NCBI GenBank assembly: GCA_020428105.1
Contig: JAGQNK010000015.1
Span: 1,209 to 50,288, forward strand
Direction: 5' to 3'
Length of the DNA: 49,080 bases
Source: Candidatus Saccharimonadota bacterium
Lineage (GTDB): Bacteria > Patescibacteriota > Saccharimonadia > Saccharimonadales > JAGQNK01
Shown here: positions 222 through 15,461 of the stretch, one piece after another
Position numbering within the stretch: position 1 is the first letter of the stretch
How the letters are laid out: each line of letters opens with the position of its first letter
The notes under the pieces: generated by a model
What the model was told of the DNA's origin: nothing
What the model saw: only the letters and a program-made list of their open reading frames with translations
Databases searched by the model: none
Made by a program: the position numbers and the translations under genes

Positions 222-526
222 GTCAATGCCGTTACCACAAACCCGATTATGCCACTTGCTGCAACTATGATACCTAGTCCGATTAAACCATCCAGTATTG
301 TGTTCTTAGCCTTTGTAATCTCCTGAGGATTGCCTTGAGAAAGAACAAATTTTAGCGCACCATATGCAATAATTATAAGTGCAATACCTCCTGCGATACC
401 TCCTGCAATAGCAAGACCTTTGGTAACATTTGCATTAGTAATGCCGTCTGGCAGATCCCTGACATTCTCTACATCTCCACGAGGAACTCTGACTTGTGCT
501 AAATAATAAGCAATTTTATACATCAT
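218..526 (-). CDS. VirB2/TrbC-like pilin (short)
   Basis: Two hydrophobic helices joined by YGALKFVLSQGNPQEITKAKNTILDGLIG, the CPR pilin motif. ATGA-coupled on both sides. Confidence 0.8.
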   Translation of the reverse strand: MMYKIAYYLAQVRVPRGDVENVRDLPDGITNANVTKGLAIAGGIAGGIALIIIAYGALKFVLSQGNPQEITKAKNTILDGLIGLGIIVAASGIIGFVVTALT

Positions 527-963
527 CCTATATTCCTACCTATGAGGTTTACTATTACTGTAGCAAACATCGCAATCATCATACCTACTAACGCATTTAT
601 TATAGTAGTTCTGGCATTTTTTGCTTTTTCGGGCTCCCCAGTACTAGTCAAGTATTGAAACCCTCCGACGACTACGAATATTACTGCCAGCATTCCAGCA
701 ACTCGTATTAGTATCTCGAAAATGGCCAACACTATATTTGGTATAGATTCTGGAATTGATACATCAAGCTTGCATTCGGTGCCATCAAAAGTTGGGTTTA
801 GGTACTTGTACCAGGTAGGGAAGTCGAGAAACTTGCCGGACTCCCTGGTGCAATATTCGGCACTTTGCGCAGCAGTAGTCTCGGTAGCAAACATAAATAC
901 CGTAAAAGCAGCTACTGCAAAGAAAAGAGTGATCATCAACATCGAAAATATACGCTTTAGCAT
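523..963 (-). CDS. VirB2/TrbC-like pilin with Cys-containing N-terminal domain
   Basis: Signal peptide, a Cys pair, then GGFQYLTSTGEPEKAKNARTTIINALVG between two TM helices. Confidence 0.85.
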   Translation of the reverse strand: MLKRIFSMLMITLFFAVAAFTVFMFATETTAAQSAEYCTRESGKFLDFPTWYKYLNPTFDGTECKLDVSIPESIPNIVLAIFEILIRVAGMLAVIFVVVGGFQYLTSTGEPEKAKNARTTIINALVGMMIAMFATVIVNLIGRNIG

Positions 964-964
964 A

Positions 965-1534
965 TCAGGTAAGAACTCCTCCCGGTATTAGCCAGTTTAA
1001 TATAGCAACAAAGAAGATATACATAACCAAAGCCATAACAGCATTAATGATGTGTTCTTTTGCGGCAGCAGTTTTCTGGGGATTGTCCCGAGAACTCGTA
1101 TACTGTATACCACCCCAAACTATCATTACAACCACCACTATACCCACTGCGCCGGATAATGCCTGAATTACCTTAACTATGATGTTAATAATTCCGCAGT
1201 TATTGGCATTCAGGGACTCACCACCGGATGAGTTGTATTTACAATCTGCCACCTCGTTTATACTATCAGTACTCTTGAGATCAGCATTCTCGCTTGAAGA
1301 GCCACCAAATTTAAAGTCGTTTATACACTTTTCTTTGTTCGCATCATTGGCACAAGCTTCTTCGGCTCCTGCATTGAGTTGCGCTAAGCATGTGTTCTTC
1401 TGATTCTCGTCTGGCATATCAGTACACTGACGAAACTTCGACCCTTCGTTAGCAAAGGCAACCGAAGGCACGAAAAGCAGTGTCGTCAATATAAAGAACG
1501 AAGAGACTAGCTTAAGTTTGTTGATTGCTAACAT
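965..1534 (-). CDS. VirB2/TrbC-like pilin with extended Cys-rich N-terminal domain
   Basis: Signal peptide ending AFA, six Cys, then GGIQYTSSRDNPQKTAAAKEHIINAV between two TM helices. Confidence 0.85.
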   Translation of the reverse strand: MLAINKLKLVSSFFILTTLLFVPSVAFANEGSKFRQCTDMPDENQKNTCLAQLNAGAEEACANDANKEKCINDFKFGGSSSENADLKSTDSINEVADCKYNSSGGESLNANNCGIINIIVKVIQALSGAVGIVVVVMIVWGGIQYTSSRDNPQKTAAAKEHIINAVMALVMYIFFVAILNWLIPGGVLT

Positions 1535-3291: not shown

Positions 3292-3303
3292 AGGATATAA
3301 GAT

Positions 3304-4683
3304 ATGCCAGAAGATTTAGTCATCACGCTTATTAAACTCATCGCTTATGTAGGTCCCTTCTTCTTAATACCGGCGATGTTCAAGTTTGCAGGTGGCGCCT
3401 TTGCAAACATAGCAGGTATGGCAAATAACAAAAGTCGTGGCCTCTTCGACCGTAGCAAGAAATATCGTGCCCAGAAGATGGGTGAAAACTGGACGGCCAC
3501 CAAAGCTGGTGAGAAAAAATTCCGCCCACAAGCCTTCAATAAGCTAGGAGAGCGCATGGGTGTTGGTGCCAGTGGAAGATTTGGCTTCGGCAGGCAGGGT
3601 AGAGCAGCCGTACAAACACAACGCCGCAACCTTGCAGCCGAAAGAGCTGCAAAAGATGAAGAACTAAAACAGCTTGGACTAGCGAGCGATGATGGTATCG
3701 CTGTTATGTTTGGGTCAGGAGGTACCGACGCAGGAGCTAGAGCTGCATCAGATGACTTATACAACTCCTGGCTAGCCGATGACGCAGAATACCGACATGC
3801 GCAAGACAATGGTGATCAAGCTGGCATGAGAGCCAGAGAAGCGCATTTCAGAGATCGTGCCGACCAAGCATACCGGGAAGCCAAGGCAGTTGGTTTTACA
3901 CGGTCTCGCGCACAAGCCGCTGGAAGTATTATGATGCAAAACAAGGCTCGTGCAATCGTTGGCGGTGCCGCAGGCAGAGAGTTTCTACAGCGTGGCCTAG
4001 AACGGCTGCATGGTGATGGCATGGATAATGCTGCGGCAACCGAAGAGACAAGACAAGCAATGGCATTCTTTGCTCGTGGCAGTGGTCGAGCAGATTTAGG
4101 CACACCAAGAGATGACCTAGACGACAGACAGGCGACCATCGACGGCTTTGACCGCGCTGGTGCCAGTGCAGTTGCCCATGGCCACACCACTGGTGTTGAG
4201 TCCACGTCAAGAGCGTTAGTCGCAGAATATCAAGAAGCTATGGATTTGGGAGATGAAACAAGAGCAGTCGAAGCGGCTTCGAAGCTCACCGCTTTACGTA
4301 ACGCGATGACCCAACAAACCCCAGAAGAAAATAAAGCTATTATTTTCGAAGCCCTACGCGACGCAGGTGTAACCCACATGGATTCTGTCGATTCAGAGTT
4401 TGGAACAATGATTGGTGGCCTACAGGGAGTGCCCGTACCACAGCCGCCAGCACCTCTAGGCCCAAGCTACACGGAAGCCGAAAAGCAACAACATGAATAT
4501 GATACAAGAGTTTATCAGGAGGCTCTGGCCGCACATCCTTCACAAACCATGACAAGAGTTATCCGTGGCCGAGCAGGTCTATTTGACCAAGGCACAGGTA
4601 GGCCAACTGATCCTGCTCTGTTGGCCGCACAGCAGCAAGGGCAGCAGCAAGGGCAGCAGCAAGGACCAGGCGCTGGACCATAA
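3304..4683 (+). CDS. VirB6-like protein, C-terminal part (last TM region plus long cytoplasmic tail)
   Basis: Same frame as 1666-3291 and 12 nt downstream. It starts with TLIKLIAYVGPFFLIPAMFKFAGG, then an Arg/Ala-rich helical tail. SD-like AAGGA at 3291-3295. Confidence 0.65.
   Translation: MPEDLVITLIKLIAYVGPFFLIPAMFKFAGGAFANIAGMANNKSRGLFDRSKKYRAQKMGENWTATKAGEKKFRPQAFNKLGERMGVGASGRFGFGRQGRAAVQTQRRNLAAERAAKDEELKQLGLASDDGIAVMFGSGGTDAGARAASDDLYNSWLADDAEYRHAQDNGDQAGMRAREAHFRDRADQAYREAKAVGFTRSRAQAAGSIMMQNKARAIVGGAAGREFLQRGLERLHGDGMDNAAATEETRQAMAFFARGSGRADLGTPRDDLDDRQATIDGFDRAGASAVAHGHTTGVESTSRALVAEYQEAMDLGDETRAVEAASKLTALRNAMTQQTPEENKAIIFEALRDAGVTHMDSVDSEFGTMIGGLQGVPVPQPPAPLGPSYTEAEKQQHEYDTRVYQEALAAHPSQTMTRVIRGRAGLFDQGTGRPTDPALLAAQQQGQQQGQQQGPGAGP
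4630..4665 (+). repeat. 3 x 12-nt tandem repeat (CAGCAGCAAGGG) encoding QQQG x3
   Basis: Read directly; the third copy ends in A instead of G. Confidence 0.9.
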
Positions 4684-4730
4684 ATCATCTGGAGCAACAC
4701 ATCCATGACAGATACATGTATACAGCATCA

Positions 4731-4766: not shown

Positions 4767-5831
4767 ATGGAAGTTTTAAATCCTTCAAATCAAAATAACG
4801 AACCTTTATCCCACCATAATATAGATGATATTGAAAATCTTCAAAATCATGAAGTTACTTCAACCGTTATAGAGCAGATTCAATTAGCACACCATGGCGT
4901 TACTGCATGGGTAGCCCAAAAACGTATGGAGCGAGCTGGCAATCGTATGGAGCGCATGGACCATAAAAGCGCACTATATAATGACATGGCAAATAGTGTA
5001 AATGGCATTGAAGCTACGCCTACCGAAACGGCTCTTGGGCAACCCGCAAAACCTCGCACATTCATAGAACGTCACATGGATAAAAAATTAGAGGGTAAAT
5101 TATGGAAAGCAGAGCTCAAAAAAGCAGAAACAAAACGAGAAGTTTCTCAGTTTGGCAACAAGGGATTTACTCAAACCAGAAGACGTGACAGAAAGAGGGT
5201 TCAAGAAAACAGGGAAACAAGAGGTCGCAAAATAGCCGAGGCAGCCCAAAAACGTCAGATAGATTCCGACTTCATTCTTGGTAATATTAGCCGGGAGGAA
5301 AGACTATCCCGTCTATCAGATATAGAACCTATGTCAAGAAAGATCGAAAACAAACGAGTAAGGTCGCTTAAAAGGCAAGGAAGTCGCATAGACAAAAGTG
5401 TAGTAAGATCTGCGAATCAGCCGGTCTTGAGTCGTTGGCGAAACCGTAGGCGGGAAAATGCTATAGAATCCATCAAGAAACATCATCACCGTGCTGAACA
5501 TCACAAAGCAAAAGCTCAATCAATCCGTACCGGAGAAGATATAATATACAATATACCTCAATCAAAAACACAAAAACGCTTAGGCGGCTTTGCTAAAAAA
5601 GCAGGTCAAGCTGTCAGGAACAGGCTGAAGGAGAGAAACCAGAACGGTAGAGTCACAATTGATTTGCCTGGTGTTGCTGCACCAGATATAAACCAAGAAA
5701 GACAGTATCCACCGCGACCTAGTAGACAGGGTAAAGCACCGCAAAATAATAGACATAAACGTCCGGCTCGCACAGAACGAGGCCGAAGGTACCAAGAGCA
5801 ACAAGCAATCAACCGACGCGGTGTTGTTTAA
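4767..5831 (+). CDS. Highly basic Arg/Lys-rich hypothetical protein (354 aa)
   Basis: Long ORF with its own promoter and no TM or signal peptide. Acidic N-terminus, then R/K-rich sequence up to an Arg-rich C-terminus. Confidence 0.7.
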   Translation: MEVLNPSNQNNEPLSHHNIDDIENLQNHEVTSTVIEQIQLAHHGVTAWVAQKRMERAGNRMERMDHKSALYNDMANSVNGIEATPTETALGQPAKPRTFIERHMDKKLEGKLWKAELKKAETKREVSQFGNKGFTQTRRRDRKRVQENRETRGRKIAEAAQKRQIDSDFILGNISREERLSRLSDIEPMSRKIENKRVRSLKRQGSRIDKSVVRSANQPVLSRWRNRRRENAIESIKKHHHRAEHHKAKAQSIRTGEDIIYNIPQSKTQKRLGGFAKKAGQAVRNRLKERNQNGRVTIDLPGVAAPDINQERQYPPRPSRQGKAPQNNRHKRPARTERGRRYQEQQAINRRGVV

Positions 5832-5905
5832 CCTATACGTTACGGACAGAGGGGTAAATTCAAGTTGGGTTTCTGCAATTCATCTTTGTTGGTACTATAT
5901 ACACT

Positions 5906-6376
5906 ATGGCACTGAGCAAACAAGATATTGGACAAATACGACAGGTTTTTAACGATGGTATTGAGGCATTGGTTTTGCCGCGTTTGGATGGTATTGATGA
6001 ACGCCTAGATGGTATTGATGAACGCCTAGATGGTATTGATGAACGCCTAGATGGTATTGATGAACGCCTAGATGGTATTGATGATAGGCTCGACAAACTA
6101 ACTATTCGTGTAGCGCAAATCGAGAGTGAACAGCGCAACACCAATACAATACTGAGAGAACTAACAACCAGAGTAGATGTGCTGGAATCAAAACTTGAAG
6201 CACTGGAAAATGACATCAAGGATATTTACCTGATGCTACATGCCATGACAAAGAAAGAAAGATCAAGCAAACACGCTTTTGCCAACCTGGGCGTAGAAGA
6301 GAAATTGGTAATACTACATTCGGAATTACTAGAGACCGCAAAACAAGCTGGAGTAAAGCTACCTAACCATCCGTAA
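5906..6376 (+). CDS. Coiled-coil protein with heptad repeat (DGIDERL)n
   Basis: 156 aa; five tandem heptads continue into a coiled coil. Extended -10 TG-G-TACTAT at 5890-5898, 7 nt before the ATG. Confidence 0.75.
   Translation: MALSKQDIGQIRQVFNDGIEALVLPRLDGIDERLDGIDERLDGIDERLDGIDERLDGIDDRLDKLTIRVAQIESEQRNTNTILRELTTRVDVLESKLEALENDIKDIYLMLHAMTKKERSSKHAFANLGVEEKLVILHSELLETAKQAGVKLPNHP
5987..6084 (+). repeat. 21-nt coding tandem repeat GATGGTATTGATGAACGCCTA (4 perfect copies plus a partial fifth)
   Basis: Perfect units at 5987, 6008, 6029 and 6050; the fifth unit from 6071 matches for 14 nt. Confidence 0.95.
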
Positions 6377-6492
6377 GCTCTAACCTATATCTATCTGTCA
6401 GCGATATGCCGAAGCCTGTTACTTTTAATATGTTTGGTTCGTACGTATAAGTTAGTGGCAGCAATAGCTCTTTGCGGTATACTAGTACATAG

Positions 6493-7701
6493 ATGGCAAC
6501 ATACAAAGTAATCCAAGATATCGAGGCCGAAGATAAGCTAATCGGCCCCTTTGGCATACGCCAGTTTATCTATCTAATAATAGTTGTAGTGTCTGGGTTC
6601 ATTATGTTCAAACTGGCTACAGTAGCGTGGTTTTTGGCGATACCACTACTGCCGCACACTTTATTCTTTGCTCTTATCGCGATGCCATTTGGTGGAGATC
6701 AGCCAACCGAAACATGGCTACTGGCAAAGATTCGCTTCATGATGAAGCCTAGGCGCCGCATCTGGAATCAAACTGGCATGCTCAACCTCGTGACAATCAC
6801 CGCCCCAAAAAAAGAAGAGAAGGTGCTGGTCAATAATATGTCGGAAGGCGAAATACGATCCAGACTTCAGGCGTTGGCAAACACCATCGACAGCCGCGGA
6901 TGGGCAATCAAGAATGTAAATATTAATGTATTTAGCCAACCAGCATTCGCAGGAGCTGGTGGTGTAACCTCTGACAGACTGGTACAGATCGATCCAGTCC
7001 CGCAACAAGTCCCAGACTATGCTACATCACCGATAGACGATATGATGGATGCTCAGAACAACCCAACAGCTCAAAACCTAGACCGTATGATTGATGCATC
7101 GTCCAAAGCGCACCGCGACAAAGTGATTAACAGTATGAGAAACCCCGAACCCGACCAAAGTGCCATCCTTCCAACGCCGACTGCCCCGACAGCCACAGCC
7201 CCACAATACGTAGCTAACATTGCTCAGCCCGCCGCAAATACAGATTATTGGTTTATGAACCAGAGTTCACAAAACACAGTCAATACTACAGCCCCAACAA
7301 GATATGACAATCCTGCGTCAAGCGCATTAATCGCGCCTGATCCTGTGTTCAGTTCGCCAGCAATACCTGAGCTATCACTAAAGCCACTTGCGCCGTCAAG
7401 TGATCCTATTACCGAGGAAGAGTTATTAGACAGAATACATGCTAAACAGCAAAACAAACCGCAACACCACAGTAGCCTAAAGGTAATAAAAACCCTGGAA
7501 GAGCAACAAGCAGAAGCTGAAGAAGCTCAAAAATTAGCTGCCACAAAAATACCAGAACCGCCGGTGACACCAGACCCAGACCCTGATATAATCGAACTTG
7601 CTAGAAATGACGATTTGAGCGTGGAGACGGTAGCTCGTCAGGCAAAGAAGTCCAAAGAACAGGATTTGTCAGACGGAGAAGTTGTTATCAATCTTCACTA
7701 G
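6493..7701 (+). CDS. PrgI-family (VirB3-like) T4SS membrane protein with long Pro/Gln-rich tail
   Basis: MATYKVIQDIEAEDKLIGPFGIRQFIY followed by two TM helices is the PrgI signature; it lies upstream of VirB4. Confidence 0.85.
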   Translation: MATYKVIQDIEAEDKLIGPFGIRQFIYLIIVVVSGFIMFKLATVAWFLAIPLLPHTLFFALIAMPFGGDQPTETWLLAKIRFMMKPRRRIWNQTGMLNLVTITAPKKEEKVLVNNMSEGEIRSRLQALANTIDSRGWAIKNVNINVFSQPAFAGAGGVTSDRLVQIDPVPQQVPDYATSPIDDMMDAQNNPTAQNLDRMIDASSKAHRDKVINSMRNPEPDQSAILPTPTAPTATAPQYVANIAQPAANTDYWFMNQSSQNTVNTTAPTRYDNPASSALIAPDPVFSSPAIPELSLKPLAPSSDPITEEELLDRIHAKQQNKPQHHSSLKVIKTLEEQQAEAEEAQKLAATKIPEPPVTPDPDPDIIELARNDDLSVETVARQAKKSKEQDLSDGEVVINLH

Positions 7702-7750
7702 GTCAAATCGTAACCCTCGATTGGTAGGGGTGGGAATTATATAAACGTTC

Positions 7751-8632
7751 ATGGATCCAAATACATACAACCAACAAGCCGCGAACCCTGCTGCTATGCC
7801 AGGTGGTCCTTATGCCACACCTGGTCAACAACCTCAGAATATGGCTCCAGGACAGTATCCACAGCCCCAACCAAACCAACCTCACAAGCAACCAATCACT
7901 AAAAGTAATCCCAATAGCACCCAAAACTCCTTGCAGATTGCGGAAATTCGTGACGGAATAGTAATTATGAATGATGGGTCATTTCGTTCGGTAGTCATGA
8001 CCAAGTCTATCAACTTCGACCTCATGAGTGGCGAAGAACGGGAAGCAGTAGAGTATGGCTATCAGGGGTTTTTGAACTCGTTGTACTTTCCTATACAGAT
8101 CTTCATTCGCTCACAAAAGATTGATATCCGCCCTTATATGGAGAAGTTGGACAAAATCCGCCAAGAACACGACAACATGCTACTTGCATTACTGATGGAA
8201 GATTATTTGGGGTTCATCGACAACCTATCTATGCAAACAAATATTATGGATAAAAAGTTCTACGTTGTTATTCCATATTTTCCATCAGTAGATGTTCAAA
8301 AAGCTTTTACGCAGAGCAAGAACTTCTTCACCGGTCTAAAAGGCCTATTCAACAATACCGAGCAGCATGTGACAGTTAATGAACAAGACCTAAACGCAGC
8401 CAAAGACGAACTGCGCAACCGTGTTCAGGCTGTGCTAGGCGGCCTACAACAGACTGGAGTTCAGGGGTTGCCACTTGATACCCAAGAACTGATAGAGCTT
8501 TATTACGACACCTACAACCCAGACACCGCCACTCGCCAGCAATTAAAAAATTTCAATGACCTAAGTACTCCGGTGGTCACCAAAGGTGAAGGTATGGCGC
8601 CGCAACCAAATCTGGACAGGAGTTTACAATAA
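7751..8632 (+). CDS. Conserved CPR T4SS protein (VirB4-N-terminal/TraC-like)
   Basis: IRDGIVIMNDGSFRSVVMTKSINFDLMSGEERE...FLNSLYFPIQIFIRS motif; 1-nt stop/start overlap with VirB4. Confidence 0.7.
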   Translation: MDPNTYNQQAANPAAMPGGPYATPGQQPQNMAPGQYPQPQPNQPHKQPITKSNPNSTQNSLQIAEIRDGIVIMNDGSFRSVVMTKSINFDLMSGEEREAVEYGYQGFLNSLYFPIQIFIRSQKIDIRPYMEKLDKIRQEHDNMLLALLMEDYLGFIDNLSMQTNIMDKKFYVVIPYFPSVDVQKAFTQSKNFFTGLKGLFNNTEQHVTVNEQDLNAAKDELRNRVQAVLGGLQQTGVQGLPLDTQELIELYYDTYNPDTATRQQLKNFNDLSTPVVTKGEGMAPQPNLDRSLQ

Positions 8633-10536
8633 TGGCCAAAAATCCACCCCTTGACCCTGTTGCAATTGCCGAACAGCAAAGACTAGCCGAACAGCAAGAA
8701 GTACAGGCCGCTTTCCAAAAGGGAATTACCGCCCTCCGCGACTTCATCGCACCCGCTTCGCTTGAATATTCATCAACTCACTTCCAGTTAGGCACACGAT
8801 TGGCGCGCACATATTATGTCTACGGCTATCCTAGGCAGGTCTATACTGGCTGGCTGAGCTCTATGGTCAACCTAGATGAAGTTATGGATATGTCTTTGTA
8901 TGTGTATCCTGTTGAGAGTCAGGTAGTACTAGAAAACCTACGAAAAAAGGTTTCGCAACTCGAAGCCGGCATCCAAATAGACGCCGAAAAAGGCCGAGTT
9001 CGCGACCCAGGCAAGCAGGCAGCTATTATGGACGCCGAGGAGATGCGCGACAAACTCCAAGTTGGCGAAGAGAGGTTCTTCCGCTTTGGCTTCTATTTCA
9101 CACTTTATGCCGGTAGCCAGGATGAACTAGATTTTGTTACCCACAAAGTTGAATCTTTACTTGGGCAACAGTTACTATTCTCCAAGCCAGCGACATCTCA
9201 GCAAGAACAGGGCTTCAATAGCACCGTTCCACAGCTTAGCGATCAGCTACAAATACGACGCAACTTCAGTACTGGTGCATTGAGCACTAGTTTCCCATTC
9301 ACCTCTGCTGACCTAACCCAAGACAGTGGCATCTTGTACGGTATAAATATGCACAATTCTGGATTGGTTATCTTTGACCGCTTTAGCCTAGAAAACGGCA
9401 ATGCAGTGGTTTTCGCCAAGTCTGGTGCCGGAAAGTCGTTCACTGTCAAACTAGAAGCACTCAGGAGTATGATGTTTGGTACCGAGGTGTTCATTATCGA
9501 CCCAGAAAATGAATACCAACGCATGGCCGAAGCCGTGGGTGGTGCGTACGTTCGTCTAAGTTTAAACTCACCGACTCGTATCAATCCGTTTGACTTGCCG
9601 AAAGTTATTGATTCCGACGATGCCGACAACGCCCTAAGAAGCAACCTCATAACTCTACATGGTCTGTTGCGCCTAATGATGGGTGGGGCTCAGACACAAA
9701 TGATGGGTGGTCAGGCGGCGGCTATTCCAGCACTCAGCCCTGTAGAAGAAGCCGATCTAGACGCCGCACTGATTGAGACCTATGCCAAAGCAGGCATAAC
9801 CAACGACCCACTAACTCATAATGCGCAACCACCGACAATTTCGGATCTGTACGACACTTTACTGCATATGGGTGGCACCGGACCTCAGCTTGCGCAACGA
9901 TTGCGCAAATACACTACCGGAACATTTGCGGGAATATTCAGCCAACAAAGCAATATTGACATTAATAACCAGCTGGTGGTGTTTAATATTCGTGATCTAG
10001 AGGATGAACTTCGTCCTGTTGCCATGTATATTGTTCTAAACTTCATCTGGAACAAAACCAAGACCGACAAAAAGCGACGACTATTAGTGGTAGATGAAGC
10101 TTGGCAGCTCATGAAGTACGAAGACTCGGCCAATTTTATGTTTAGCTTGGCTAAAAGGGCCAGGAAGTACAATCTTGGTATTACGACCATCACTCAGGAT
10201 GTTGAAGACTTTATGGGCTCTCGTATGGGGCGCGCCATTGTCGCCAATGCCTCAATGCAGATACTACTCAAGCAATCGACATCGGCAGTAGATGTATTGG
10301 CTGACGTCTTCAAACTTACCAGCGAAGAACGTAAGCGTTTGGCCCAGTTCCCGGTCGGGCAAGGATTGTTCTTTGCTGGGCAAAACCATGTACACATTCA
10401 GATAGCTAGTAGCCCGACTGAAACAAGCCTAATTACTACCAACCCCGAACAAGTTGCTCAAATCGAACAACAAGGCGAAATGGCCGGCATGCAGGGAACC
10501 ATTGATTTAAATAATAGGTTGCATCCTGGGTTATAA
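8632..10536 (+). CDS. virB4: VirB4-family T4SS ATPase
   Basis: Walker A AKSGAGKS, IIDPENEY, Walker B LLVVDEAW, RARKYNLGITTITQD; PrgI context. Confidence 0.9.
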   Translation: MAKNPPLDPVAIAEQQRLAEQQEVQAAFQKGITALRDFIAPASLEYSSTHFQLGTRLARTYYVYGYPRQVYTGWLSSMVNLDEVMDMSLYVYPVESQVVLENLRKKVSQLEAGIQIDAEKGRVRDPGKQAAIMDAEEMRDKLQVGEERFFRFGFYFTLYAGSQDELDFVTHKVESLLGQQLLFSKPATSQQEQGFNSTVPQLSDQLQIRRNFSTGALSTSFPFTSADLTQDSGILYGINMHNSGLVIFDRFSLENGNAVVFAKSGAGKSFTVKLEALRSMMFGTEVFIIDPENEYQRMAEAVGGAYVRLSLNSPTRINPFDLPKVIDSDDADNALRSNLITLHGLLRLMMGGAQTQMMGGQAAAIPALSPVEEADLDAALIETYAKAGITNDPLTHNAQPPTISDLYDTLLHMGGTGPQLAQRLRKYTTGTFAGIFSQQSNIDINNQLVVFNIRDLEDELRPVAMYIVLNFIWNKTKTDKKRRLLVVDEAWQLMKYEDSANFMFSLAKRARKYNLGITTITQDVEDFMGSRMGRAIVANASMQILLKQSTSAVDVLADVFKLTSEERKRLAQFPVGQGLFFAGQNHVHIQIASSPTETSLITTNPEQVAQIEQQGEMAGMQGTIDLNNRLHPGL

Positions 10537-10563: not shown

Positions 10564-13527
10564 GTGCCTGCTGTCTACGACGACGAAAAAACCAAAGAAG
10601 ACGAGCTCCGAAGCATTACCGGCATAGATAAAGCTGAAGAAAAGGCCATAGAAGCACGAGCTCACGATGGAATAGCCAGTGCAGAGGCGGATGGTGGAAC
10701 CCCAGAAAACGATAGAGCAGCGAGAAATGAGCAAGGAAAGCTAGACGATCAAGTAGGCGAAGGCTATACAGAAAGTGGTAATAATGGAAATTCTAGTAAT
10801 AACGCTAGAATCAGTGGGCGGCGCAAGCAAGGCATTATTGCTGGTTCGCTAGTCACACTTGCTGTAGGTGCTGGTGGCATGGGATTCATGGCAGCACCAA
10901 ATTTTATCGTCAACCATCTTAGAGAATTGATGTTAGGTAAGGTGTCTCAGCTACAAAATTTTCACACCAGACGATACCGAAGAAGCAAAATGCATAAGAT
11001 ACGTGACATGTTCACCGCTGATGGCAGAAGAAGTAGCAAAGTTATTACTGACATGGAAGCCAGGGGCTACAAATTCGACTGGGGAAAGCCGAGGGGCAAA
11101 ACCATACAAGGGATAAAACCTCCAGGGGCAGACGATTTTATTAGAGGTGATGACATGAGTACTCATATAGAAGAATATATGGAGGTAAGACATCCTTTGC
11201 GAACGTCCAGGTGGAAGACCAAGAGGACAGAGTCACTATATAGAACCAGCAAACTACCTCGTAAATCGCCTGTTGTAGATGGACAGGACTATGACGACCC
11301 AGAAAAACAGATGAACAAAACATTGGCCAAAGAAGCACTGGATGAAGCAGACATAAAGCTTAGTGCTGATGTTTCTGATCCGCCCGAAGATACGCCCGAA
11401 GATGTCGTTGCAAAAACGGATGAAGAAATAAAAGACATGATTCAAAGCGATGGTTCGCTCGATCCAATAAAGCAAAAGCTACGGGCAGGAACGTCACTAG
11501 ATGAACTCACAAGTACCGAGAGAAGGGTTGCTCGTATTGGTGTCGATTTTGATGATGAACTAGCAGAAATTATTGCCAATATTGCAAGCAGCGGCAGTGT
11601 CGCGTCAAAGGTGTCCAAGGGTATCAAAAGTGCAACTATGAGTACAGAAATTCTTGATCGAATTTGCACAGTAAAAAAACGATTACAGGCCGTGACATTG
11701 GCAGCAAGATTATTTAGAGCAAGGTCCTTGTTACGACTGGCGGCAAGCTTCGTAAAGGCCTCTGATGACACAAGACGAGGTAAAGTTGACCCGAAGCTCA
11801 TGAATGCGTTATTTAAGCGTGTTACTACCACCGATTCAAACGGCTATCCAATTGGTGCATCAGAAGGATTTGCCTATATCATGAAGAACAAATTTAGTAA
11901 GTCTAAAAATGATGAGTTCAAAGGTAGCTTTGGTGTTGATGGAAAACCTACTGGAGTAGTCAAACGAATACAGGACACAACAAACATTCCTGGATGCTCT
12001 GTTTTCCAAAATGTCGGGTTTCAGGTGGGTGTAGCAGTAGTGGAGGTTGCTGTAGCATTCTTCTCAGGAGGTTCGTCTGAAGCAGCTGCTGAACCGGTAA
12101 AACAAGGATTAAAGGTAACAATAAAAGAAGCTATTGAGAGAGGCATAACCAAGGCCATGATAAGAAAAGGTCTGATGGAAGTTGGTAAAACTATCGCTAT
12201 AGAAGTGACTTTTGATATGGCTATGACCTATGTTCAGTTGCTTGCCGAGAAGTCTATGTCATTAAACTTCACAGGACAAGAAAAGGGTGGTGAATTGGGA
12301 AATATACTTGCCGCTGGATCAGGTGTCCTAAATAAACAACGAAGTTTACGGGCAGGCCAGGTACCCTCCACGGTAGGCCAATATGTTCAAGCACAAACAG
12401 AATATATTGCATGGAAAAAAGAAGAAACCAAAAAACAAAGTCTGTACACAAGAATATTTGACTATAATAATTATGATTCTGTAGCATTTAATCTAGCTTC
12501 AACTGTTGCATTTATGCCAATGACTCCGGCAGCCATTGGAGCATCTGTCGGTAACTCTTTTAGCAGTATCGTGTCCATGGTACTAACCAACCCTGCACGT
12601 ATAGTTGCGAAAGTTGGCGCAGTTTATGGTGGAAGTACCTTTGCCCAAGATTCAGACGAAATTAGTTTTGAAACTCTTAAGATTGGAGACAAATCACTTG
12701 CGACCGATCCCGCCGGCAACCTGCTGCCTATCATGCCTAGTGGAATTGAAAATATAGACCCTGAAAAGAATATTGAAGAATTAATAGAAGCGGGTGAAAT
12801 AGAAAGCGAGTCCCTTGAGCCTGTAAAAGGTAGTAATTTCGAACAACACATTGCAAACTGTGTAGACGCATTAGATACAATTTCAGTCATAGAGCATGAG
12901 GACCAGTCCAAGCCGGAGTTCGACTGCCTCGCAACTCAATCAATGACAAAGAAGTTTAAAGCACATCTTGCTTATCTTGATATGGTTGACGGAGTAGATG
13001 CAGAGTTCTTCCCTGATGAAATTGGGGGTAAATCCGGGGCATCAGCGAATCCAACCAGTGGCAATCTGACAGAACCCAGCTACGCTAAAAATCCAAGTGT
13101 CAAGGTCGATGGAGCACCACCCGGAGCTCATAAAACGTCAAACTGTACTGGTACATTTACGACGGGTGCAGCTAGCTTGAGGACTGTTATACTTGAAAAA
13201 TGGCAGCCTCCAGTTAGCTCAATCGGTGGATACTCCTGTAGAAAAAACACGGCATCCCCAGGCACTAGTATCCATGGATTAGGAAGAGCTCTGGATGTAA
13301 TGATAGACTCTACTACTCCGGAAGGTCTCGAAAAAGGAAATGAAATCAGAAACTGGGTGATCAACAATGCAACTCAGCTCGGGGTGCAGCGAGTTATCTG
13401 GAACAAATACACTTGGGCGGCCAATAAAGATGGCTGGCGACCCTATGGTGGCCCCAACCCCCACACAGATCATCTCCATATAGAAATAAATCTAGATGCA
13501 TCTACGAAAGGAAACCTTGGTAGATGA
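10564..13527 (+). CDS. Large membrane-anchored T4SS-associated protein with C-terminal M15-like Zn peptidase domain
   Basis: 987 aa, GTG start, TM near aa 90-110 and an internal hydrophobic segment. The C-terminus has SIHGLGRALD...HTDHLHIE (SxHxxGxAxD and HxH Zn motifs). Confidence 0.7.
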   Translation: MPAVYDDEKTKEDELRSITGIDKAEEKAIEARAHDGIASAEADGGTPENDRAARNEQGKLDDQVGEGYTESGNNGNSSNNARISGRRKQGIIAGSLVTLAVGAGGMGFMAAPNFIVNHLRELMLGKVSQLQNFHTRRYRRSKMHKIRDMFTADGRRSSKVITDMEARGYKFDWGKPRGKTIQGIKPPGADDFIRGDDMSTHIEEYMEVRHPLRTSRWKTKRTESLYRTSKLPRKSPVVDGQDYDDPEKQMNKTLAKEALDEADIKLSADVSDPPEDTPEDVVAKTDEEIKDMIQSDGSLDPIKQKLRAGTSLDELTSTERRVARIGVDFDDELAEIIANIASSGSVASKVSKGIKSATMSTEILDRICTVKKRLQAVTLAARLFRARSLLRLAASFVKASDDTRRGKVDPKLMNALFKRVTTTDSNGYPIGASEGFAYIMKNKFSKSKNDEFKGSFGVDGKPTGVVKRIQDTTNIPGCSVFQNVGFQVGVAVVEVAVAFFSGGSSEAAAEPVKQGLKVTIKEAIERGITKAMIRKGLMEVGKTIAIEVTFDMAMTYVQLLAEKSMSLNFTGQEKGGELGNILAAGSGVLNKQRSLRAGQVPSTVGQYVQAQTEYIAWKKEETKKQSLYTRIFDYNNYDSVAFNLASTVAFMPMTPAAIGASVGNSFSSIVSMVLTNPARIVAKVGAVYGGSTFAQDSDEISFETLKIGDKSLATDPAGNLLPIMPSGIENIDPEKNIEELIEAGEIESESLEPVKGSNFEQHIANCVDALDTISVIEHEDQSKPEFDCLATQSMTKKFKAHLAYLDMVDGVDAEFFPDEIGGKSGASANPTSGNLTEPSYAKNPSVKVDGAPPGAHKTSNCTGTFTTGAASLRTVILEKWQPPVSSIGGYSCRKNTASPGTSIHGLGRALDVMIDSTTPEGLEKGNEIRNWVINNATQLGVQRVIWNKYTWAANKDGWRPYGGPNPHTDHLHIEINLDASTKGNLGR

Positions 13528-15461
13528 CAAAGAACAATACATTCAAAAGTGCAATAGATATGTCTAAAACTATCTTTGTTGTGTTGCTTTTACTAAGCAC
13601 ATGCTTCCCACTCGCTGCTTTTGCACAGAAGCAAGACTGTAACGAGGCTAGGTTACGAGATCTACAAATTGCCATCGTAAACTGTACTGGCGAAAACGAC
13701 TGTACGTTACCCACAGCTACACCCGGTTTTGGCTCTATGAAATCTGGTGACTCTATTTATATTCTCGGAGATTCAATAACAGTTGGAGCCACGCCTCTGT
13801 ATGGTGCGAAATTCTCAGAGAAAGGCATATCTACCCAAATAAATGCGTTCTTGGGCAGATCCTGGACTTCCGGTGGAGGTTTTTTTGGCGGCACTCCTGC
13901 TAGGGATGCAGTACAGACAGATGCTGCCAAGATACAGTCTTCGAAAGGTATTGTTATCGCCCTTGGCAGTAACAACGGCATAGCAGGTAATCCTATTGAC
14001 CAGGTTATAAACGGTATCCGAGAGAAAAACCCTAACGCTCCGATTTGGTGGGTCAACACGGCTAGCACGAGAGCCGACTTGGGTAATTTGGGTGAATTTA
14101 ATGCAGCTCTCGAGTCAGAGGCAGGGAATAGAAACTTTCGCATTATTGACTGGTTCAAAACTATAGACCCTAGCGGCAACCCCAAATCACCTCCAGTAAA
14201 AGACACTATCGGACTCCTTGGCGACGGACTGCATCCAAATCCAGAAGGACAAAAACGGCTCGTTGATCTAGTTGTAAGTTCGGTTACAAGCGAGTCGCCG
14301 AGTGGCACTCCTACCGGTGGATGTGAGTGTAGTGTTGGGTCAAATGGCCCCATATCAATGACGGCATCAAACAATATTCCTGAGCCTCACAAAGCGGTTT
14401 TCGAGAGAGCTGCTTCTAAGTTTGCCGTTAATCCTAATCTAATCGCGGCATTGTTCTTGAGTGAGCAAGGCAATGTATGGAAGCCTTTTGATAGCCCTTG
14501 GGCCTCCTCTCCCGCAGGCGCAAGCGGTCCGTTCCAGTTTATGCCCGGGACCTGGGGTGCGTATAAAGAGGACGGCAATGGAGATGGAGTTACTGATATC
14601 ATGAACTTTGAAGATGCAGCATATGCCGCCGCGAAACTTGCCGCTACAGGTACAAACCAATCTACGCCCCTTGGGGACCTCAATAAGCCCTTTGCACCCA
14701 ATACTATGATATTTTTCTCGGCAACCTACAACTGGGGCGGGGGAAATGTTCAAAACAAGACCAACCCTGACTCACCAATAACTGCTGCCCCTAAGGAAAC
14801 GCAAAACTATATGAATAATATCCATATGGTGATATCTTCTGATTTTACCAAGAGCGGACACTCGGCATACGGCCCTCCTCGTATGCCTGGACAGACAGTC
14901 AATCAAACACCAGCCGATGGTACCAATACTTCTAGTGGCAACTGTGTGAGTTCTGGGGGCGACACCGGCCTTGCGACCAGCAATCCTACCGAAGCCAGAC
15001 AGAAAATATTATCTAGCTCTAATGTCATGTGGGGAAACTATGGATCTGCTACTAGCCAAAAATCTGATATTGAAGGATGTATGACCGACACTGCCTTAAT
15101 ATCTATAGCTACTATCATACAAAACTCAGGTGTTCAAATACCCGTAAATGCTCTCGCCACCGATCACGGAGGCTGCTCAGCTTCTGGCGGTAGCCTACAT
15201 AACCATGGCCGTGCAATAGACATTGGTTATTATGGCAACGCTAGTGCTGGCGCTGATAGACACAAGCCGGAAGGAGACACATTGTACAAATTCCTGTTCG
15301 ATAATAGAAATGTCTTAAAAATAGATGAGCTCATATGGCAATATCCACCCTCTGGCTATAAGTGTATCGACGGTGGCAACGTGGGCGAATGTGACACAAT
15401 CTATAATGCCGCAACTATGAACCAACACTACCACCACATACATGTTGGATTCCTAAATTAA
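13524..15461 (+). CDS. Secreted three-domain cell-wall enzyme: SGNH esterase, SLT lytic transglycosylase and M15-like peptidase
   Basis: Signal peptide. SGNH blocks GDSIT / GSNN / DGLHP. SLT motifs LSEQG, AGASGPFQFMPGTW and TYNWG. Peptidase motifs SLHNHGRAID and HYHHIH. ATGA-coupled to the upstream gene. Confidence 0.8.
   Translation: MTKNNTFKSAIDMSKTIFVVLLLLSTCFPLAAFAQKQDCNEARLRDLQIAIVNCTGENDCTLPTATPGFGSMKSGDSIYILGDSITVGATPLYGAKFSEKGISTQINAFLGRSWTSGGGFFGGTPARDAVQTDAAKIQSSKGIVIALGSNNGIAGNPIDQVINGIREKNPNAPIWWVNTASTRADLGNLGEFNAALESEAGNRNFRIIDWFKTIDPSGNPKSPPVKDTIGLLGDGLHPNPEGQKRLVDLVVSSVTSESPSGTPTGGCECSVGSNGPISMTASNNIPEPHKAVFERAASKFAVNPNLIAALFLSEQGNVWKPFDSPWASSPAGASGPFQFMPGTWGAYKEDGNGDGVTDIMNFEDAAYAAAKLAATGTNQSTPLGDLNKPFAPNTMIFFSATYNWGGGNVQNKTNPDSPITAAPKETQNYMNNIHMVISSDFTKSGHSAYGPPRMPGQTVNQTPADGTNTSSGNCVSSGGDTGLATSNPTEARQKILSSSNVMWGNYGSATSQKSDIEGCMTDTALISIATIIQNSGVQIPVNALATDHGGCSASGGSLHNHGRAIDIGYYGNASAGADRHKPEGDTLYKFLFDNRNVLKIDELIWQYPPSGYKCIDGGNVGECDTIYNAATMNQHYHHIHVGFLN

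Follow-up and report, generated by a model that had tools for sequence, protein, structure and literature searches.

The window analysed here is a 49,080-nucleotide (nt) stretch of contig JAGQNK010000015.1 (assembly GCA_020428105.1) from a Candidatus Saccharimonadota bacterium of the order Saccharimonadales. It carries a type IV secretion system (T4SS) operon of the Gram-positive type on the plus strand, the second-to-last gene of which encodes a predicted secreted cell-wall hydrolase with three modules: an SGNH esterase, a glycan-cleaving SLT/GH23 module and a zinc peptidase. The operon includes genes for PrgI (VirB3-like), an unannotated 293-aa (amino acid) protein, VirB4, a 987-aa protein, the hydrolase and a 270-aa protein, and convergent recF-dnaN-dnaA genes follow directly (Table 1). 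The ATG of the hydrolase gene overlaps the TGA stop of the 987-aa gene (ATGA at 13524-13527), and a Shine-Dalgarno-like AAAGGA lies ~12 nt 5' of the start. Together, the overlap and this site make it probable that the two genes are translationally coupled.

Table 1 Features of the hydrolase and its T4SS locus (aa, residues of the protein; AF2, AlphaFold2; ORF, open reading frame)
Feature	Position (nt)	Strand	Basis
Three-module secreted cell-wall hydrolase gene (predicted), 645 aa	13524..15461	+	ORF, Pfam, AF2, start/stop overlap
Predicted signal peptide, aa 1-34	13524..13625	+	read from sequence; AF2 helix 5-27
Cys-containing short spacer, aa 35-69 (C39, C54, C60)	after signal peptide	+	sequence
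SGNH esterase module (predicted), aa 70-257	13731..14294	+	Pfam, invariant columns, PDB profile match, fold matches
Linker 1, aa 258-277, C-x-C (GGCECSVG; C267, C269)	14295..14354	+	low pLDDT
SLT / GH23 glycan-cleaving module (predicted), aa 278-464	14355..14915	+	Pfam, NCBIfam, SltB3 alignment, fold, PHROG
Linker 2, aa 465-475, C474	14916..14948	+	low pLDDT
LAS / clan MD zinc peptidase module (predicted), VldE-like, aa 476-645	14949..15458	+	motifs, profile, AF2, fold
Two VirB2-like T4SS pilin genes	523..1534	-	family matches; divergent from operon
PrgI (VirB3-like) T4SS protein	6493..7701	+	family match
VirB4-type T4SS ATPase	8632..10536	+	TraG P-loop and AAA_10 matches
987-aa T4SS protein	10564..13527	+	C-terminal LAS-type module ~aa 824-987, nt 13033-13524
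270-aa last operon gene, N-terminal hydrophobic segment	15480..16292	+	position kept before convergent recF

A preliminary description made from the letters of the window had proposed this reading frame, three catalytic modules with intact catalytic residues and Cys-bearing linkers between them, and had suggested a profile scan and a structure prediction. The reading frame agrees exactly. A motif check of the protein recovered every motif, with GDS at the stated residues: GDS (82-84), GRSW (111-114), GSNN (148-151) and DGLH (234-237) in the SGNH part; SEQG (313-316), GPFQ (335-338) and TYNWG (401-405) in the SLT part; SLHNHGRAID (557-566) and HYHHIH (635-640) in the C-terminal part. The SGNH and SLT modules exceeded the curated Pfam cut-offs. 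The AlphaFold2 (AF2) model of the whole protein, computed with 65 homologues, had a mean predicted local distance difference test score (pLDDT) of 86.6 and contained three separate, confidently folded domains at about residues 70-257, 278-464 and 476-645. Pfam, alignments and model thus agree on three modules with their catalytic residues in place. The two proposed Cys motifs, GCECSVG (266-272) and GNCVSSG (472-478), fall in the two low-confidence linkers between the domains.

The N-terminus reads as a cleavable Sec signal peptide, with a Lys-rich n-region, the hydrophobic core TIFVVLLLLSTCFPLAAFA and likely cleavage between AFA and QK; in the model, a helix (residues 5-27) is followed by a low-pLDDT stretch. 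A lipoprotein reading of L-S-T-C27 is unlikely, as this Cys in the hydrophobic core is not conserved among homologues. The linker cysteines are better kept. The C-x-C right after the SGNH module (14319-14339) is present even where unrelated modules follow, as STCACSVQ in the allele of a genome from the same family (G077), and at least 90% of 65 sequences keep C474 of linker 2 (motif 14937-14957). Roles considered for the linker cysteines were a disulfide tether and a processing or attachment site.

The SGNH module falls within the SGNH/GDSL superfamily both by profile threshold and by its block residues. It matched Lipase_GDSL_2 in Pfam over residues 80-245 and the complete profile (positions 1-178; E = 2e-11, 45.1 bits against a cut-off of 32.9), and it contains block I (G82-D83-S84), block II (G111, then R112), block III (G148/N150) and block V (D234-x-x-H237). 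Another GDS at residues 75-77 is a decoy. G82, D83, S84, G148, N150 and H237 never vary in alignments of 18 and 68 relatives, D234 hardly varies and R112 varies little or not at all; by alignment, the module has a complete predicted Ser-His-Asp triad and also the Asn of block III. At block II, this protein has Gly and some homologues have Ser or Ala. Gly at this position is the hydrolase-type state, Ser or Ala being linked to transferases (PMC12148441).

The relatives of this module point to peptidoglycan O-acetylation, as the preliminary description had supposed. A profile of the module searched against the PDB gave as best match a 159-aa 'Acetyltransferase' (6wn9/6vjp, E = 7e-10), which is S. 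aureus OatA-C (PMC9487903). In a fold search, the best natural matches were PatB of Neisseria and Campylobacter (about 5e-6), followed by generic carbohydrate esterases (CE3, sialate, xylan) and then pneumococcal OatA-C (4e-4). Ape1 (4k3u), counted with PatB and OatA-C among the best natural fold matches, ranked 23 (E = 2.8e-3) and was missing from the sequence-profile matches. The hydrolase is not closely similar to Ape1 and does not share its architecture, an SGNH domain with an inserted CBM35: the Pfam scan of the hydrolase found no CBM domain. Judged by profile and model, the module neighbours both the peptidoglycan O-acetyl enzymes and the CE3 esterases, with a small margin over generic esterases.

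The genomic setting argues for an esterase rather than a transferase. OatA- and PatB-type transferases depend on a membrane protein, AT3 or MBOAT, for their supply of acetyl groups. Neither was found in the hydrolase (Pfam, Acyl_transf_3 and MBOAT), in its 67 closest relatives or in its genome, which is 99.6% complete at 0.91 Mb and in which the hydrolase carries the sole GDSL-type domain; AT3 was also absent from the two closest genomes having the same three-domain protein. Without a membrane acetyl donor a transferase would have no known substrate supply, whereas an esterase needs none. Elsewhere in the order, the genome of locus L003 (G003) encodes two stand-alone AT3 acyltransferases of ~355 aa (contigs C73 and C33). 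As the source genome has none, O-acetylation capacity therefore appears to vary among Saccharibacteria that bear the SGNH module.

The middle module belongs to the GH23 (SLT) fold by profile, catalytic Glu and downstream motifs. Pfam matched SLT_2 at residues 306-371 (E = 2e-9, 37.6 bits against a cut-off of 24.3) and SLT at residues 293-413 (E = 5e-6, 26.4 bits against 21.3), and NCBIfam gave only partial MltB-type matches. The GH23 motif series runs from E314 in LSEQGN, nearly invariant in 65 sequences, through GASGPFQFMPGTW to TYNWG (Y402-N403-W-G). The segment D350-GNGDGVT-D358 lines up with DFDGDGKRD in P. aeruginosa SltB3, a loop that forms the EF-hand-like calcium site of MltB-type enzymes. 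Fold matches included the transglycosylase domain of T7 gp16, Slt70, Slt35 and SltB3, and PHROG matches included 'lytic tail protein' and 'internal virion protein with endolysin domain'. At 3300-4703 of locus L015, on a contig of a metagenome-assembled genome (MAG) labelled Candidatus Aenigmatarchaeota archaeon, lies a 467-aa SLT-domain homologue (36% identity over ~130 residues); either the contig was misbinned or the gene was transferred into an archaeal genome.

Scanned by itself, the C-terminal module gave nothing informative in Pfam or NCBIfam. Its 176 residues matched no Pfam M15 family (VanY, Peptidase_M15_4 and similar) even at E <= 10, and the only match was HH_signal at E = 0.06. In precomputed annotations of homologues, the Pfam label PF26571 goes together with the SxHxxGxAxD motif and the VldE-like module; the PF26571 model is missing from the Pfam copy that we scanned, and the module therefore looks unannotated in a direct scan. 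Its identity was resolved by a family profile and by a separate model and fold search. The profile, built from 18 sequences, matched the C-terminal domain of VldE in the PDB (9flh, E = 2.5e-6), followed by weak matches to VanY-like, hedgehog and Ply500 chains. Since the SGNH module dominated the fold search with the whole protein, we modelled the domain alone (pLDDT 87.8, predicted template-modelling score 0.84). It matched VldE with a probability of about 1.0, and then the Streptomyces Zn DD-peptidase 1lbu, hedgehogs, MepA and the L-Ala-D-Glu peptidase of phage RB49.

VldE is an L,D-endopeptidase that binds Zn through H301, D308 and H375 and has an H373-x-H375 motif and an extra H370 (PMC11667670). 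Both S-x-H-x-x-G-x-A-x-D and H-x-x-H-x-H are invariant in the 18 aligned sequences, and VldE H301, D308, H375, H373 and H370 correspond to H559, D566, H640, H638 and H635 here, all of them invariant. The predicted Zn ligands are accordingly H559, D566 and H640, with H638 as predicted catalytic residue and H635 as the extra conserved His. H559-x6-D566, H638-x-H640 and the Hedgehog/DD-peptidase fold place the module in LAS / clan MD. The 'M15-like' peptidase of the preliminary description holds at this superfamily level and fails at the level of the Pfam M15 families.

The T4SS setting had likewise been recognised beforehand, and it is firm: pilins, PrgI and VirB4 lie in the same locus, and the synteny holds in 14 related loci (L001-L014) from Saccharibacteria / Saccharimonadales MAGs. 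By operon position and its conservation, the hydrolase is a T4SS-associated enzyme. The layout matches the T4SS locus published for Ca. Southlakia epibionticum ML1, which is essential. In that locus, SEML1_0007 (1113 aa) has a Hedgehog/DD-peptidase domain at its end and SEML1_0006 (643 aa) combines a glucosaminidase, a phage-tail lysozyme and a cysteine peptidase; both proved essential for epibiotic growth in transposon sequencing (PMC10633639). This match, the origin of the closest loci and the genome size of 0.91 Mb all agree with an assignment to Saccharibacteria. 'Peptidase and lysozyme homologues' downstream of virB4, and VirB1-like components, are also noted in PMC12102498 and PMC12857230. 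The 987-aa protein is the positional equivalent of SEML1_0007. Its end gave weak VanY, Peptidase_M15_4 and Extensin-like_C matches and aligns with the hydrolase C-terminus on the invariant SxHxxGxAxD and HxxHxH. SEML1_0006 occupies the same slot as the hydrolase, in an operon of virB4, a ~1000-aa protein, a ~640-aa three-domain hydrolase, small exported proteins and recF, but it has no SGNH domain and is a positional analogue rather than a sequence orthologue.

To follow the esterase across genomes, we searched the SGNH module alone against 1.84 billion representatives and obtained 473 matches at E <= 1e-3, with proteins of 400-1200 aa making up nearly all of the best 150. Among the best 67 of the 473, 53 carry Phage_lysozyme2 and three carry SLT_2; further partners are M23 (9), CHAP (8), NlpC/P60, Amidase_3, C39-like and GH3 (5 each), VanY (4) and glucosaminidase (2), and none of the 67 has an AT3 fusion. 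This SGNH subfamily is, by domain content, almost always attached to peptidoglycan-cutting enzymes, and the pairing with glycan-cleaving and peptidase domains first read from the one protein is near-universal among its 67 closest relatives. In a set of homologues (P0066-P0129) we also saw four alpha/beta-hydrolase matches (Chlorophyllase, BD-FAE, PAF-AH), possibly lipase- or cutinase-like, and one SGNH-family protein with a beta-lactamase-type domain.

Within the order, the SGNH module occurs in 46 of 201 genomes (42 of 152 genera), with a single match in each. We located virB4 in 30 of these 46; both lie on one contig in 25 genomes and are split between contigs in five. In all 25 one-contig genomes, the module shares the strand of virB4 and lies downstream of it by 3-5 kb. 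Two genomes of the same genus, G153 and G204, gave no SGNH match, which is not evidence of loss because virB4 is at a contig end in G153 and was not found in G204. The exact SGNH-SLT-LAS combination is rare, at seven clusters among the 65 matches listed from 5.8 billion clustered proteins. The general triad of SGNH module, glycan cleaver and peptidase is common in the order.

Around a conserved VirB4 (76-97% identical across the order), the modules of the hydrolase differ from genome to genome. In G077, VirB4 is 90% identical to that of the window, while the hydrolase consists of an SGNH module (31% identity), Phage_lysozyme2 and M23, and its ~1000-aa neighbour aligns with the 987-aa protein over the first 70 residues only. 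In L003, from a Saccharimonadales MAG, a 1230-aa upstream protein (5199-8891) ends in SGNH (aa 862-1045) plus M23, and the next gene (8875-10200, 441 aa) encodes SLT and LAS only; the esterase module therefore seems to have hopped between neighbouring genes. Other loci pair SLT with an NlpC/P60, Amidase_3, M23 or C39-like peptidase. Similarity of the hydrolase does not track genome relatedness. L002 is more distant by RecF (46%) and DnaN (52%) and shares a hydrolase 62% identical across all three modules, whereas G077, with RecF at 66%, shares the SGNH module only. In the closest relative, L001, VirB4 is 97%, the hydrolase 78% and the 987-aa protein 56% identical, so that the 987-aa protein evolves even faster than the hydrolase. 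This mismatch indicates that the hydrolase is an exchangeable, fast-evolving cassette inside a conserved machine.

Taken together, these observations suggest that the hydrolase is the peptidoglycan-opening enzyme of the Saccharibacterial T4SS, equivalent to VirB1, PrgK and TraG, and that its esterase clears 6-O-acetyl groups from N-acetylmuramic acid (MurNAc) for the glycan cleaver. From sequence, models and analogy, we give this reading a probability of roughly 55%. After Sec export, the protein would present three independent catalytic modules on flexible Cys-bearing linkers. The SGNH module would hydrolyse MurNAc 6-O-acetyl groups, the SLT module would then cut the bond between MurNAc and N-acetylglucosamine, and the VldE-like zinc peptidase would cleave the peptide stem, with L-Ala-D-iGlx or a cross-link as the likeliest site, leaving a local hole for the T4SS channel or pilus. 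MurNAc 6-O-acetylation is an established block to lysozymes, and prior de-O-acetylation an established need of lytic transglycosylases; the substrate of the esterase and the order in which the modules would act are inferred. The linkers would let three active sites serve neighbouring positions of one substrate patch, and the idea of three activities 'in one pass' is speculation.

Several points weigh against this reading. The structurally characterised SGNH proteins closest to the module, OatA-C and PatB, act as transferases, certain homologues carry Ser or Ala at block II instead of Gly, and the fold E-values of peptidoglycan-specific enzymes barely beat those of generic carbohydrate esterases. 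SLT-fold domains may be muramidases instead of lytic transglycosylases, and the PrgK study reports a muramidase in its title. Canonical VirB1/PrgK enzymes work on the wall of the producer.

This last point leads to the question of whose wall is opened. We lean towards the wall of the host, by sequence and analogy, because the genome has no known O-acetylation machinery, because the hydrolase looks released rather than anchored and because its modules are replaced much more quickly than the T4SS core changes, as in phage tail lysins. The serious rival is the classical VirB1/PrgK role, in which the enzyme opens the producer's own peptidoglycan for T4SS or pilus assembly and the SGNH module trims acetyl groups from the cell's own wall or a wall-linked glycan. 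We consider this housekeeping role unlikely overall, though it has real attractions: the gene sits within, and is probably coupled to, the T4SS structural genes, a surface-glycan locus also lies within the window, and the VirB1-type precedent is one of local action on the donor wall. A self wall fits less easily with the absence of AT3/MBOAT acetyltransferases from the genome and with an apparently cleavable signal peptide and no retained membrane anchor. Extreme module turnover beside so conserved a VirB4, and cassette exchange out of step with genome relatedness, would be difficult to account for were the enzyme aimed at a conserved self wall.

Other readings concern what the SGNH module acts on or what the products are for. 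It could deacylate wall teichoic acid, capsule or exopolysaccharide, arabinogalactan or lipid and so lay the peptidoglycan bare, in the manner of the SGNH domains in phage tail spikes and fibres. A fold search of viral proteins found numerous SGNH esterases in the minor tail proteins, tail fibres and tail spikes of phages, among them actinophages of Gordonia, Microbacterium, Mycobacterium and Clavibacter; generic carbohydrate esterases score near PatB, and the lipase-like modules of some family members would suit such a target. Yet the best sequence-profile match is specifically to OatA-C, a peptidoglycan O-acetyltransferase domain, and the fusion partners are almost exclusively peptidoglycan hydrolases, which makes a different polymer a doubtful choice. 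It is very improbable that the module is instead a transferase that O-acetylates own or host peptidoglycan near the breach, limiting autolysis or protecting the contact site. Its characterised relatives and the transferase-linked block II state of some homologues would fit, but this protein has the canonical Gly, neither a membrane partner nor a known extracellular acetyl donor is at hand, and an acetylated substrate would block the fused glycan cleaver. Nor do we expect that the hydrolases digest the host wall to feed an auxotrophic epibiont with amino sugars and amino acids, with the T4SS a matter of co-location only. The GH3 (N-acetylhexosaminidase-type) domains and glucosaminidases in 5 and 2 of the 67 closest relatives would be in keeping with this, as would the published description of Saccharibacteria as lacking many biosynthetic pathways. 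The genome has no AnmK, however, so that anhydro-MurNAc released by a lytic transglycosylase would be barred from the known salvage route and feeding on anhydromuropeptides is unsupported, and the strict linkage to virB4, at 3-5 kb, speaks for a function within the machine.

If the hydrolase does open peptidoglycan for the T4SS, its nearest functional precedents are PrgK of pCF10 and TraG of pIP501. They too are encoded in T4SS operons of the Gram-positive type, they join SLT to one or two peptidase domains, and the machine needs them to cross the peptidoglycan. PrgK is LytM + SLT + CHAP and TraG is SLT + CHAP, both lacking an SGNH esterase and a LAS/VldE-type peptidase. Both are membrane-anchored and act on the donor's own wall, whereas the protein described here carries a signal peptide that looks cleavable and is part of a T4SS believed to serve host contact. 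Logic of the kind proposed is known from Neisseria, where the SGNH esterase Ape1 of the PatA/PatB/Ape1 system clears MurNAc C6 before the lytic transglycosylase LtgA and the two enzymes cooperate (PMC7083599). Those are separate periplasmic proteins working on self peptidoglycan; here the modules are fused, or encoded by neighbouring genes in L003, and the CBM35 of Ape1, itself a weak fold match, is lacking.

The single modules have precedents too. With OatA-C and PatB the SGNH module has in common the Ser-His-Asp triad, the block III Asn and the G-R context of block II, and it differs in having no membrane partner. With VldE (Spr1875 of S. pneumoniae) the LAS module shares H-x6-D and H-x-x-H-x-H, including the extra His, at an identity of about 17-20%; VldE pairs this domain with LysM and serves the cell's own septal remodelling. 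Phage lysins and tail spikes are similarly modular breachers of another cell's envelope and swap modules in a similar way; T7 gp16 matches the SLT module, and SGNH domains are common in phage tail proteins. The hydrolase, in contrast, is a cellular gene in a T4SS operon beside oriC and no part of a virion, and no phage genes flank it in the window.

The suggestion that the architecture might be new stands in part. Multi-domain, VirB1-equivalent hydrolases of Gram-positive-type T4SS are known already (PrgK, TraG, SEML1_0006), and the triad is common in the order (46/201). The literature searched, whose journal coverage was incomplete, contained no account of an SGNH module in the T4SS hydrolases of Saccharibacteria. 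New with respect to PrgK, TraG and SEML1_0006 are the SGNH module, its strict linkage to virB4 (about 23% of sampled genomes), a VldE-like peptidase in this role and the evidence for cassette exchange.

A wider proposal, which we put forward tentatively and at less than even odds, is that the two genes after virB4 form a wall-breaching cassette directed against the host wall. Its modules would be shuffled between Saccharibacteria to fit the peptidoglycan chemotype of the host, with the choices being an esterase or none; SLT, phage-type lysozyme or glucosaminidase; and LAS, M23, CHAP, NlpC/P60 or amidase. The SGNH module would then mark O-acetylating hosts and the cassette would be a host-range determinant; if so, it would offer a genomic predictor of epibiont host range, like phage tail lysins.

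These results bear on how ultrasmall epibiotic Patescibacteria, whose T4SS is essential for epibiotic growth, engage the thick walls of Gram-positive hosts. The T4SS locus carries a fast-evolving modular enzyme predicted to cut the wall, with a putative esterase included in about a quarter of the genomes of the order. De-O-acetylation that licenses glycan cleavage would be a concrete biochemical step in this engagement, and the predicted esterase is a candidate marker of host specificity. O-acetylation is the main lysozyme-resistance modification of Gram-positive walls, and a single polypeptide that beats it would, if the proposal is true, interest enzyme-based antibacterial work.

Two further observations concern the locus and its relatives. 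The 270-aa protein at the end of the operon matched no family and is 40-76% identical in relatives; in Ca. S. epibionticum, its slot is taken by a PEGA and a prealbumin-like protein, both small and exported. Five genomes (G162, G025, G014, G013 and G188) encode on another contig a second, divergent VirB4 paralogue, 36-39% identical, which could reflect another T4SS or a mobile element.

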